A DNA stretch of 64,000 nucleotides, taken from assembly GCF_057098645.1 (NCBI RefSeq), contig NZ_CM169472.1; one strand, given 5' to 3'. Below are positions 55,156-64,000 of the stretch, one piece after another. Under the pieces are notes generated by a model, which made no database searches, was not told the DNA's origin, and saw nothing but the letters and a program-made list of their open reading frames with translations. Position 1 is the first letter of the stretch; each line of letters starts with the position of its first letter. Made by a program: the position numbers and the translations under genes.

Positions 55156-55250
55156 GGAAGATCGTCGTCTCCGGTGAGGCGGCTGGACTTCAAATCCAGT
55201 TGGGGCCGCCAGCGGTCCCGGGCAGGTTCGACTCCTGTGATCTTCCGCCA
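55156..55250 (+). tRNA. selC: tRNA-Sec (selenocysteine, anticodon UCA)
   Basis: 95-nt sequence GGAAGATCGTCGTCTCCGGTGAGGCGGCTGGACTTCAAATCCAGT...GTGATCTTCCGCCA with long variable arm, 8-bp acceptor stem and encoded CCA. Confidence 0.9.
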
Positions 55251-55412
55251 AACCTCATCCAGCCAGTTCCGAGACACTCCATAAAATCATTTATATTCAA
55301 TGCGATGAATAATCAGCTTGTCCGTAATAGTCCGAGATCATCTCCCTGAATCCGCGAAAAATATGTATAGTAATGTGTATAGATTTTTTATACGTAGTTT
55401 TCAGTTATACAC

Positions 55413-56591
55413 ATGGCCCTAACCGATATACAGATCAAACGTGCAAAACCACAAGACAAACCATACACATTAAACGATGGACAAGGTCTGTCATTGCTTA
55501 TCAATCCCGATGGCTCGAAAGGCTGGCGTTTCCGTTTCCGGTTTGCAGGGAAAGCGCGGTTAATGTCATTTGGCAGCTACGATTTAGTAAGCCTCGCAGA
55601 AGCACGTGAGAAACGCGATACGGCTCGTAAGCAGGTAGCAAACGGCATTGATCCAGTAGCAGAGCGTAAGGCTCAGAAAATTGCTCAGAAATTATCAACT
55701 GAAAACTCTTTTGAGGCCGTTAGCAGAGAATGGCATGCAGCAAAAGCAGATCGCTGGACTTTAGCTTATCGCGAAGAAATTATTAAAACATTTGAACAGG
55801 ATGTTTTTCCTTTCATTGGTAAACGGCCAATAGCTGAAATTAAACCCCTAGAACTGCTTGAAGTTCTTAAACGCATAGAAAAACGTGGAGCGTTGGAGAA
55901 AACCAGAAAAGTACGTCAACGATGCGGAGAGGTGTTTCGCTACGCGATCATCACTGGCCGCGCTGAATACAATCCAGCACCTGATTTAGCTATCGCATTA
56001 GCTGTACCGAAGCAAAAACATCATCCTTTTCTATCAGCAGAAGAACTCCCTCATTTTGTCAGAGATCTTGAGGCTTACACAGGTAGCATAATCACTAAAA
56101 ATGCAACTAAAATTGTGATGCTTACTGGAGTCAGGACACAGGAAATGCGTTTTGCCACTTGGGACGAAATTGATTTACAAAAAAAGGTATGGGAAATACC
56201 GGCCGAACGAATGAAAATGCGCCGACCACATCTTGTACCACTCTCCACTCAAGTAGTTGAAATTTTTCAACAACTCAAGCTAATCACCAAAAACTATCCA
56301 TATATTTTTATCGGCCGTAATAATCACACTAAGCCAATTTCTAAAGAAAGTGTATCCCAAGTAATAGAATTACTTGGCTATAAAGGAAGAGCTACGGGCC
56401 ACGGATTCCGCCATACAATGTCTACTATTTTGCATGAGTACGGATTTAACAGCGAATGGATAGAATTACAATTGGCTCATGTTGATAAGAATAGTATTCG
56501 AGGCACTTATAATCATGCCCAATATTTAGAAAAGAGAAGTTCTATGATGCAGTGGTACAGTGATTATATCCTTAATAGAGATAAAGCATAG
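55413..56591 (+). CDS. int: P4-family tyrosine integrase, adjacent to the tRNA-Sec 3' end
   Basis: 392-aa ORF with N-terminal arm-binding region (…AKPQDKPYTLNDGQGLSLLINPDGSKGWRFRFRFAGK…) and C-terminal catalytic residues (…HGFRHT…LAHVDKNSIRGTYNHAQY). Confidence 0.9.
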   Translation: MALTDIQIKRAKPQDKPYTLNDGQGLSLLINPDGSKGWRFRFRFAGKARLMSFGSYDLVSLAEAREKRDTARKQVANGIDPVAERKAQKIAQKLSTENSFEAVSREWHAAKADRWTLAYREEIIKTFEQDVFPFIGKRPIAEIKPLELLEVLKRIEKRGALEKTRKVRQRCGEVFRYAIITGRAEYNPAPDLAIALAVPKQKHHPFLSAEELPHFVRDLEAYTGSIITKNATKIVMLTGVRTQEMRFATWDEIDLQKKVWEIPAERMKMRRPHLVPLSTQVVEIFQQLKLITKNYPYIFIGRNNHTKPISKESVSQVIELLGYKGRATGHGFRHTMSTILHEYGFNSEWIELQLAHVDKNSIRGTYNHAQYLEKRSSMMQWYSDYILNRDKA

Positions 56592-56646
56592 AATAATAGA
56601 AGTTAATGCTGTATACTGTAAATTAACAATATAGTAAGGATTGAAA

Positions 56647-57513
56647 ATGAAGAAGACAGTACTTATAACTGATTTAGATAACACACTATTCGACTGGTTT
56701 AGCGTTTGGTATCATAGCTTTAATGCAATGCTAAATAAAGTCGTTGAGATTTCCGGTTTTTCTAAAGACGAGCTTATTGCACAGATAAAACCAATTCATC
56801 AAAAATATGGTACTGCCGAATACTCTTTTATTCTAGAAAGCATACCTCTTTTACAAGAAAAATATGGTGATAGAAACTCCATCAATTTAGTTATGGATGA
56901 TGCTATACACGCTTTCAGAAGTGAGAGAAAGAAATATCTTTCTCTGTACCCAACAGTAATGGACACTTTGAGTGTATTAAAAAGTAAAGGGTGTTATATT
57001 GTCGCGTATACTGAATCCAAAGCTTATTACTCCAATTTCCGCTTAACAAGATTAGGATTAGATGGTGTGATTGATGTCCTTTTCTCTCCTGAAGATCATG
57101 AAATCCCTGATGGTGAGAAAAAACAAGATAAATATAATCTAATGCTGACAAAGCAAGAATATACACCTATTGATGAAATTAAACCAAACCCACAACTTCT
57201 TCTGGACATAATAAAATCAATTGGTGCCACACCAGAAGAGTGTGTATATATAGGTGACAGTGAAATGAAAGATATAGAAATGGCCCAAAAAGCAAACGTA
57301 TCAGATGTTTTTGCAAGCTATGGAACGAATCATTTTGAAGAGAACAAGGAGGGATATGAATTACTCCGTGCGGTAACCCACTGGACTGATGCTGATGTTG
57401 AAAGGGAAAGAAAAATTAAAGAAAATGCCTTCGGAGCAAAACCCACATATGTAGCCAAACAATTTTCAGATATTTTGTCTTTTTTTGAATTTACAAAATT
57501 TAAAGGAAAATAG
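56647..57513 (+). CDS. HAD-superfamily phosphohydrolase (subfamily IA-like), cargo gene 1
   Basis: Track ORF 56641..57513 (TTG); first ATG gives MKKTVLITDLDNTLFDW (motif I DxDxT), later EIKPNPQ (motif III Lys) and YIGDSEMKDIEMA (motif IV GDxxxD); AT-rich; RBS aagga upstream. Confidence 0.8.
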   Translation: MKKTVLITDLDNTLFDWFSVWYHSFNAMLNKVVEISGFSKDELIAQIKPIHQKYGTAEYSFILESIPLLQEKYGDRNSINLVMDDAIHAFRSERKKYLSLYPTVMDTLSVLKSKGCYIVAYTESKAYYSNFRLTRLGLDGVIDVLFSPEDHEIPDGEKKQDKYNLMLTKQEYTPIDEIKPNPQLLLDIIKSIGATPEECVYIGDSEMKDIEMAQKANVSDVFASYGTNHFEENKEGYELLRAVTHWTDADVERERKIKENAFGAKPTYVAKQFSDILSFFEFTKFKGK

Positions 57514-57514
57514 A

Positions 57515-62403: not shown

Positions 62404-62942
62404 TTTTGCACCTGCTGCATGACAGCTTTATCGGGTGCGACGTAGCCCTGATGCCCGGTGGTGTTGGCGAGCGGATTTTCCTGTACCAGAATGCTCAGAT
62501 GCATTGCCCGGACAAGCGCCTCACAGGTTTCATTCAGGGCGTGTTCCAGCTCATGCTCTGCATACAGACTCAGAAGGTGATGATGTGCCTTCCGGTAGGC
62601 GGTGGCCGTGCTGTCACACGCCCCTTTCAGGCGTTCACGTTCGAAATTCAGCACCACGGCCAGATTGTCATATTCCTGTACCAGCTCCCGGCGTGCCACG
62701 CGCTCAATGTGGCGCTGTTTCAGCTCGTCGCTCAGGACACCACCGGCTGCACGAAAGGCCGTGCGCCAGTCGTCAGCGTCGTTTCCGTCGGCCTGCGCCA
62801 GCGCATTTTTTTCCTGCTCTGCCCGTTCAATGGCCGTGACGGTCTCATCCATCAGTCGGGCGTTCTCAAGGTGGGCGGCTCTGGCCTTTTCCAGTTGTGC
62901 CAGTGCGGGTTGCAGATATTCAGGGATGGTGTTGTCAGACAT
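62404..62942 (-). pseudogene. sid: 5' fragment of P4 sid, truncated by the IS21-family insertion
   Basis: ORF 62394..62960; Sid-like sequence from MSDNTIPEYLQPALAQLEKARAAHLENARLMDE…; the final codons and stop fall inside the IS end. Confidence 0.6.
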
Positions 62943-63110
62943 TTTCCGGCTCCTCGTCACTTCAGGTTAAGAAAATTGTGACGTACACCGGACAACAACA
63001 CGACGCATTGCAGATGTGCCAGCCCTGACACAGGAGACTCATCCTCAGACCGGCAAGCCAGGAAAAGGTCGCAGGAAAAACCGGCTTACTGTTTGTTTTT
63101 TTATATTTTA

Positions 63111-63215
63111 CTGTTCACCTCTGTTCACCATAAGAAAAAAGATAAGTAATACAGTAAGTTAAATGGTGAACAATCGCAGTAATGACTGTTCACCGTCTGT
63201 TCACCACTGTTCACC
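63111..63215. repeat. Five direct copies of CTGTTCACC in two clusters with 10-11-bp spacing, in the sid / vis-like divergent control region
   Basis: Copies read at 63111, 63121, 63186, 63197 and 63207. Confidence 0.5.
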
Positions 63216-63493
63216 CGTTGATGGACTTTTTGTGCTGTTTACTACTGTTTATTTTTATTAATTCACTGAAATAAATAAGAAAAAACAATTTGTATTTCAC
63301 TATAATTTTTTCCAGCTCCTTCCAGAGCGTTTTAAAGCTATCTGGCGCTGATATACAAAAAATGCACAGCCATTGTAAGGCTGCCGGAACAAATCCCCCC
63401 TGTTGCGTCTGCCAAAAATATTCACAAAATAAAGCGCTACCCGAAGCCGGACGGACTTATCCGGTGCTGTATGGACATTAACGAGGTAGCCCG

Positions 63494-63760
63494 ATGCAAG
63501 CTGTTTTTTCTTCCCCGTCTCCCGCCCCTGTGACGCCACTGATGCCGCTGCCGGACATCACGCAGGAGCGTTTTTTACGTCTGCCGGAAGTGATGCACCT
63601 GTGCGGCCTGTCACGCTCGACCATCTATGAACTCATCCGTAAGGGGGAATTTCCGCCGCAGGTGAGTCTTGGCGGTAAAAATGTGGCCTGGCTGCACTCT
63701 GAAGTCACCGCATGGATGGCCGGACGCATTGCCGGACGCAAACGGGGGTACGACGCATGA
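63494..63760 (+). CDS. AlpA/Vis-family small DNA-binding protein (excisionase / regulator-like)
   Basis: 88-aa ORF with AlpA-type HTH region (…RFLRLPEVMHLCGLSRSTIYELIRKGEFPPQVSLGGKNVAWLHSEVTAWM…); divergent from the late genes; start may be an internal Met. Confidence 0.7.
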   Translation: MQAVFSSPSPAPVTPLMPLPDITQERFLRLPEVMHLCGLSRSTIYELIRKGEFPPQVSLGGKNVAWLHSEVTAWMAGRIAGRKRGYDA

Positions 63761-64000
63761 TAGTGCCCGCTCTGCAAAAACTCCCTTTTTCTGGCTTGCC
63801 TTTTTCCGGCATTTGCGGATATAGTTTTTCCGCTGCCGCAAAATCGGCAGCCGGGCGTGAGAACCCGTGTAGCTCGAAGGCGACATATGACGCGCCATGC
63901 GTCTTTTTTTGTGTCGCAATCAACGCCACAGAGCGCCAGATTATGGTGTGGCGTGTGGTTTGCCGTGCAGGTATGATCCTGTTCGCAATCGCATGTTATG

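Follow-up and report, generated by a model that had tools for sequence, protein, structure and literature searches.

The right end of a 64,000-nt stretch of contig NZ_CM169472.1 (RefSeq assembly GCF_057098645.1; the whole stretch is called the window below) was analysed from position 55,156 onwards. The region opened with selC, the gene of tRNA-Sec, which was the only tRNA detected by ARAGORN between 50000 and 64000. It continued with a P4-family integrase gene (int), a pair of cargo genes, the cohesive-end sequence cos, psu, delta, a sid gene interrupted by an insertion sequence (IS), a replication origin (ori), vis and an immunity leader (Table 1). This order, selC-int-cargo-cos-psu-delta-sid-ori-vis-leader, was that of the integrated map of the satellite phage P4, as the initial annotation had proposed for the part from int to sid. 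The gene order, together with the 95-98% DNA identity to P4 in the late and regulatory half, supported the P4-like satellite of that annotation. The region very likely represents about two-thirds of a P4-like satellite, its left part, which is integrated at the selC 3' end in an E. coli-type chromosome.

Table 1. Features of the selC-proximal element (window coordinates, except for the attR copies in the last row).
Feature	Position	Strand	Evidence or remark
selC (tRNA-Sec, anticodon TCA), integration target	55156-55250	+	ARAGORN; Rfam RF01852, 83.8 bits
attL core GACTCCTGTGATCTTCCGCCAAA, selC 3' end plus AA, 23 nt	55230-55252	+	recurs as attR in relatives
Tandem 11-mers AATATGTATAG / AATGTGTATAG	55360-55382	+	repeat search; 30 bp upstream of int
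int, P4-family tyrosine integrase, 392 aa	55413-56591	+	Pfam Arm-DNA-bind_3, Phage_int_M and Phage_integrase (PF00589)
Variable "hotspot" segment between int and cos	56592-58230	.	replaces P4 gop-beta-cII
misB, HAD-family phosphatase, 288 aa	56647-57513	+	PADLOC "Hydrolase" PDLC03008, 6e-198, full length; Pfam PF00702, PF13419
misC, effector with three transmembrane segments, 210 aa	57515-58147	+	PADLOC "Hydrolase-TM" PDLC03009, 9e-141, full length
cos, P2/P4 cohesive-end sequence GGCGAGGCGGGGAAAGCAC, 19 nt	58238-58256	-	exact match
psu, polarity suppression / capsid decoration protein, 190 aa, intact	58421-58993	-	189/190 vs P4 Psu (99.5%)
delta, two-domain Ogr/Delta zinc-finger late-gene activator, 166 aa, intact	59067-59567	-	162/166 vs P4 Delta (97.6%)
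sid 3' fragment, C-terminal 68 residues plus stop codon	59564-59771	-	P4 alignment; reconstruction
IS21-family element, ISSso4-like, 2,639 bp, intact	59772-62410	-	NCBIfam; comparison of ends
istB, 251 aa	59871-60626	-	NCBIfam IS21_help_AAA, 2e-76, above cut-off
istA, 511 aa	60643-62178	-	NCBIfam transpos_IS21, 1e-84, above cut-off
sid 5' fragment	62411-62942	-	P4 alignment; reconstruction
P4 ori, six alpha-binding type I repeats TGTTCACC	63112-63215	.	corresponds to annotated P4 ori repeats
vis/alpA (P4 ORF88), excisionase and regulator, 88 aa	63494-63760	+	87/88 vs P4 ORF88 (98.9%)
P_LE-like promoter	63796-63825	+	promoter scan
Immunity leader RNA, region with P_LE-like promoter	63796-63909 (terminator 63889-63903)	+	terminator scan; Rfam
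attR copies of GACTCCTGTGATCTTCCGCCAAA in relatives, after alpha/crr	L002 19721-19743; L004 19419-19441		sequence match

The integrase gene followed tRNA-Sec after a gap of 162 bp, and ARAGORN, Rfam and Pfam agreed with the initial annotation on both genes. The integrase matched NCBIfam PRK09692 at 1e-86 and was only 35% identical to P4 Int. It was 100% identical to the integrase that adjoins selC in E. coli E6, and no high-coverage match above 48% identity was found for it in the phage records. Its position and the att repeats of the relatives suggest that the enzyme is of a selC-specific type. No second copy of the 23-nt attL core was found within the 64-kb window. An inverted copy of the tandem 11-mers overlapped the start codon of int (55406-55414). 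These 11-mers may be arm-type integrase sites or autoregulatory sites of int; in P4, tandem 12-nt arm repeats occupy the equivalent place next to int.

The cos sequence was found once in the 64 kb, with no occurrence expected from shuffled sequences. It was identical to bases 1-19 of P4, and the bases flanking it matched P2-like phages. The P2/P4-type cos of the initial annotation was thus exact and unique in the window, and its psu, two-domain Delta and AlpA/Vis-like genes all aligned with their P4 counterparts at the identities given in Table 1. That annotation had named failure of Psu, Delta and Sid to align with P4 proteins as evidence against a P4-like satellite; the three were 97.6-99.5% identical to them. 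Delta also matched NCBIfam PRK09678 over two Ogr-like stretches. A megablast search of the phage records aligned window positions 58257-59774 with P4 11624-10107 at 98.2% identity, and positions 62405-63970 with P4 10119-8554 at 95.5% identity. Six of the seven matches to the TGTTCACC octamer in the window were located inside the ori interval; 1.7 matches were expected in the whole 64 kb. The leader was matched by the Rfam families isrK (RF01394, 69.2 bits) and c4-a1b1 (RF03163, 50.4 bits), both of which exceeded the gathering score. By sequence, int, misB, misC, psu, delta, vis, cos and the ori repeats were intact. Apart from sid, no visible gene was shortened, and identities to functional or widespread alleles were 97.6-100%.

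The last part of the window (63861-64000), which took in a seqA-like segment and the first part of the cI region, followed the leader variant of E. coli VG1046-3E9 and not that of P4 or E. coli MS 16-3. Outside this part, the backbone was closest to MS 16-3 and E6. This pattern suggests a mosaic backbone, and the immunity specificity of the element probably differs from that of P4.

The P4 homology ended 26 nt into cos on the int side, so the cassette between int and cos fills the slot in which P4 carries gop-beta-cII. The G+C content of this segment was 32-38%, compared with about 50-55% in the P4 backbone. The initial annotation had placed a cargo pair after int and left it unidentified. Both genes were present, separated by 1 nt. 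The first product carried the DLD motif, a catalytic aspartate motif, at residues 9-11 and was 100% identical to WP_000754434, which RefSeq annotates as misB in E. coli E6. The second contained three hydrophobic segments (residues ~42-65, 73-98 and 148-175) and was 100% identical to WP_000998640, annotated as misC in the same strain. These two accessions were listed in P4 int-psu hotspots in Table S1A of Rousset 2022 (PMC9122126), where the "Hydrolase + 3TM" cassette cloned from E. coli 2862600 (plasmid pFR97) was reported to inhibit T7 specifically. Over the first 399 nt of the pFR97 insert, which were the part compared, window positions 56497-56895 were identical at 398 of 399 nt; the partial sequence of the pFR97 reverse cloning primer had no exact match in the window. 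On these matches, the cargo pair is misB and misC, a type II Metis ("Hydrolase + 3TM") system.

No significant Pfam domain was found in MisC. Residues 23-92 gave a faint, non-significant match (E=0.07) to PF24838, "Octameric membrane protein family (8xMP)", which echoes the octameric MisC ring predicted with AlphaFold3 in the Metis preprint. In that preprint, Osterman et al. 2025 named the family type II Metis and cited the operon of strain 2862600 as a homologue (bioRxiv 10.1101/2025.11.05.686725). MisC was proposed to sense N6-methyl-dAMP (m6dAMP), which arises when a phage degrades Dam-methylated host DNA, and to form a toxic, possibly pore-forming, octamer; MisB dephosphorylates the basal m6dAMP and so prevents autoimmunity (bioRxiv 10.1101/2025.11.05.686725).

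The slot between int and cos is an established hotspot of P4-like satellites into which anti-phage systems are swapped (PMC9122126). Otherwise similar selC elements of other E. coli carried an AAA ATPase, a DEAD-box helicase, AIPR, Drt4 or other cargo in the same slot. The exact Int, MisB and MisC sequences were each found on at least 1000 public contigs from E. coli and Salmonella. Of 5,426 complete E. coli genomes, by contrast, only 7 carried the cassette at an identity of at least 99%. A hotspot preprint of 2026 mentioned neither the misB-misC cassette nor IS insertions.

The initial annotation had also noted that sid was split, without naming the cause, which was the 2,639-bp IS21-family insertion. 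IstA and IstB shared 99% identity with annotated ISSso4-family copies. The ends of the element, TGCG...TTGCA with multiple terminal repeats, were fixed against a second copy, which lies at another site in strain WWCOL-236 (locus L003) and whose IstA and IstB were 99% identical to those of the window. The element was flanked by a 5-bp target duplication, CCTGC, at 59767-59771 and 62411-62415, and was the only ISSso4-like copy in the window. When the IS and one copy of the duplication were removed in silico, a 735-nt sid open reading frame of 244 aa was restored, the product of which was identical to P4 Sid at 241 of 244 residues (98.8%). The insertion lay at about codon 178, and the interrupted gene yielded a truncated 182-aa product that ended in IS-derived residues. 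The gene is most likely an IS-disrupted pseudogene and, because Sid is truncated, capsid-size redirection has most likely been lost. The IS, which has the same orientation, also parts delta and psu from the sid promoter and would be polar on both genes. In P4, mutation of sid still allows packaging, in the form of multimers within heads of P2 size, and by analogy the element may still be packaged in this way.

Exact scans of the genome, metagenome and viral contig collections found no occurrence of the unique junction between sid and the IS, GATTTCACCTGCTGCGTATTCCGCTCTATT, and no exact-product records were found for the truncated Sid N-fragment (182 aa, 188 aa) or the open reading frame of the C-fragment. 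None of the complete E. coli RefSeq genomes had an IS at this position of sid, and in the only record that covered at least 80% of the query the IS was inserted at a different place. The insertion point within sid is the only feature of the element that was not found elsewhere, and it amounts to a routine lesion.

The same ISSso4-like element was located at three different sites in selC P4-like satellites of different strains: in sid in the window, in the ori type I repeats in WWCOL-236 (L003 ~15100-17750), and at the 3' end of psu in ETEC1717 (L006 ~4780-7300). The query itself contained the IS, so a ranking bias may have contributed to this pattern. Recurrent IS erosion of selC P4-like satellites could account for the pattern, and the three positions could hint that an IS-mediated "taming" of satellites recurs. 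That the IS immobilises the satellite as a Metis island retained by the host, or rewires delta and psu through istAB read-through, seems improbable.

The window stopped within the immunity leader, about 240 bp past vis, and the likely remainder of the element was deduced from its relatives. The elements of E. coli MS 16-3 (CP146667) and E6 (CP104539) were about 98.5% identical in DNA to that of the window apart from the IS. A protein-level comparison, made for E6 alone among the relatives, gave 100% identity for Int, MisB and MisC. Both elements continued with the cI/icd region, epsilon, orf151, a DUF5375 gene and the gene of a 777-aa alpha primase-helicase; in MS 16-3, two 120-bp crr repeats, 180 bp apart, were located 3' of the primase gene. 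Both were 10.2-10.5 kb in size and ended in the 23-bp direct repeat GACTCCTGTGATCTTCCGCCAAA of the selC 3' end. These relatives strongly support an element that runs past the end of the window. Epsilon, alpha, crr and attR would be expected within about 4.4 kb beyond it, and the whole element would measure about 13 kb with the IS.

Just past attR in the relatives, and before setC/yicL, a rhuM gene was found. It was intact in MS 16-3 (L002 19794-20831) and reduced to pseudogene fragments at three other loci (L003 22979-23140, L004 19518-19679 and L005 19041-19202). This gene appears to be left over from an earlier, second insertion at selC.

The region was scored against the seven-component definition of P4-like satellites (de Sousa and Rocha 2021; SatelliteFinder; PMC8628076). 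The integrase, psu, delta, a sid homologue (in two fragments) and alpA/vis were found in the window together with a P2-type cos, and sid was not intact. Several observations weigh against a complete satellite that works as the model below would have it. Epsilon, alpha, crr and attR lie outside the window, and completeness was deduced from the relatives only. The final ~140 nt follow a leader variant other than that of the closest relative, so the half beyond the window may differ from that of MS 16-3 and E6. No helper P2 prophage was visible within the window. For the cargo, the experiments on the Metis mechanism were performed with a Phyllobacterium homologue, used for Dam dependence and m6dAMP toxicity, and with type I systems (bioRxiv 10.1101/2025.11.05.686725), and only anti-T7 activity has been published for the E. 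coli cassette.

The same observations could be read as those of a decaying P4 remnant that can no longer be mobilised and persists as a fixed defence island at selC, with the IS as one of several lesions and the right half deleted or degraded. Insertional inactivation of sid and the location of the right half outside the window are compatible with such decay, as are the selC elements of ETEC1717, with an internal stop in the integrase and the IS at the end of psu, and of WWCOL-236, with the IS in ori and an ash pseudogene. Possibly defective P4-like sets were also discussed by de Sousa and Rocha. However, apart from sid the visible genes were complete and matched functional or widespread alleles at 97.6-100% identity, and cos, the ori repeats, vis and the leader were intact. 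Since P4 sid mutants are packaged as multimers, loss of Sid alone need not abolish transfer. A remnant of this kind is possible but rather unlikely, and a P4-like satellite with an IS-disrupted sid is preferred.

Two further explanations set aside the satellite or its defence cargo. Because selC is a recurrent site for genomic islands with CP4-type integrases (PMC6174562), the region might be a pathogenicity or genomic island of the LEE, SHI-2 or PAI-I type that merely shares a CP4/P4-family integrase. Such an island is at odds with the presence of cos, psu, delta, sid, ori and vis that are 95-98% identical in DNA to those of P4, and with the relatives, which are 10.2-10.5 kb elements between att repeats; it is scarcely credible here. 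Within the window, a pathogenicity island was rejected, as no virulence genes were found in 55251-64000 and the P4 genes, Metis and the IS accounted for all of it. The cargo pair might also serve housekeeping metabolism, as a phosphoglycolate or sugar phosphatase with a membrane partner. Some sources name the gene "phosphoglycolate phosphatase", and sub-threshold NCBIfam matches to this and other HAD equivalogs were obtained, but these fell far under the curated cut-offs. A metabolic role for the HAD gene was rejected on the full-length PADLOC matches, the match of 398 of 399 nt to the compared part of the T7-resistance cassette, the position in the P4 int-cos defence hotspot and the G+C content, which was low relative to the backbone; we consider it highly improbable.

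For the preferred P4-like satellite, a working model can be drawn largely by analogy with P4; the literature summarised in PMC8628076 describes how Delta, Sid, Psu, cos and Vis of P4 serve to exploit P2. The putative selC-specific tyrosine integrase, encoded next to attL, would direct integration at selC. Delta would switch on the late genes, Sid would form the small-capsid scaffold, Psu would decorate capsids and inhibit Rho, and the P2 terminase would cut cos. MisC would turn toxic on sensing the N6-methyl-dAMP released as a lytic phage degrades Dam-methylated host DNA, and MisB would prevent autoimmunity by removing the basal m6dAMP. The IS in sid truncates Sid and leaves the defence cassette and the integrase intact.

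The chromosome to the left of the element was an ordinary E. coli core with spoT, recG, ligB, yicH, yicI and yicJ. This flank was 99.7-99.8% identical to that of strain Z1323HEC0399 and of two O145:H28 strains. Rfam matched an ALIL pseudoknot, an IS3-family frameshift element, at 45228-45344 on the minus strand (120.9 bits), which indicates another IS copy in the chromosomal flank. A JUMPstart element, an ops-containing leader typical of lipopolysaccharide-core and polysaccharide operons, was matched at 25114-25152 on the minus strand (55.2 bits).

The locus is a textbook case of a P4-like satellite at one of the tRNA sites, selC among them, where such satellites commonly reside, and also of the int-cos anti-phage hotspot and of IS erosion; it matters little beyond correct annotation. 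The outcome for annotation is that the cargo becomes type II Metis (misB/misC) and sid an IS-disrupted pseudogene. A prediction for the strain is Dam-dependent resistance to genome-degrading lytic phages such as T7. Both the kind of element and, almost exactly, its sequence were already known. The int-cos hotspot and the misB-misC cassette were published in 2022 and the mechanism class in 2025, and P4-like satellites at selC have been known since phiR73 in 1991.

P4-like satellites are found in ~44% of E. coli isolates (PMC9122126). Compared with P4 itself (NC_001609 / X51522), the prophage gene order of the window was the same. Over the stretch between cos and the P_LE leader, which includes psu, delta, sid, ori and vis, the DNA was 95-98% identical, and the two agreed fully in the 19-nt cos and in the type I repeats of ori. 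The two differ in that P4 integrates at leuX instead of selC, carries gop-beta-cII in place of misB-misC, has a sid gene that is not interrupted by an IS, and has a different leader over the last ~140 nt. The IS itself had all the features of the IS21 family, namely istA plus istB, terminal TG/CA with multiple repeats and a target duplication, here of 5 bp, within the 4-8 bp typical of the family. Within that family, it resembled ISSso4 in its TG...CA ends, multiple terminal repeats and short target duplication.

The retronphage phiR73, reported in 1991 as a P4-like satellite integrated in selC of E. coli (Sun, Inouye and Inouye 1991, J Bacteriol 173:4171; Inouye et al. 1991, Science 252:969), agrees with the window in site and satellite type. 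It carries cargo of an anti-phage type and transfers in a P2-dependent manner, but this cargo is a retron (Ec73), whereas that of the window is type II Metis. At the level of sequence, no difference was detected between type II Metis ("Hydrolase + 3TM", Rst_Hydrolase-3Tm), in which a HAD phosphatase and a three-transmembrane protein are likewise encoded in one operon, and the cassette of the window. Other close systems were the selC P4-like satellites of E. coli MS 16-3, E6, GPEC1040/1201/1366, PigCaeca_2 and CH4804, which occupied the same site and had a misB-misC cassette 99.8-99.9% identical to that of the window. Their backbone was ~98.5% identical, with an uninterrupted sid and without the IS. 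MS 16-3, the member that was aligned, carried a P4-type immunity leader, whereas the leader of the window was of the VG1046 type.

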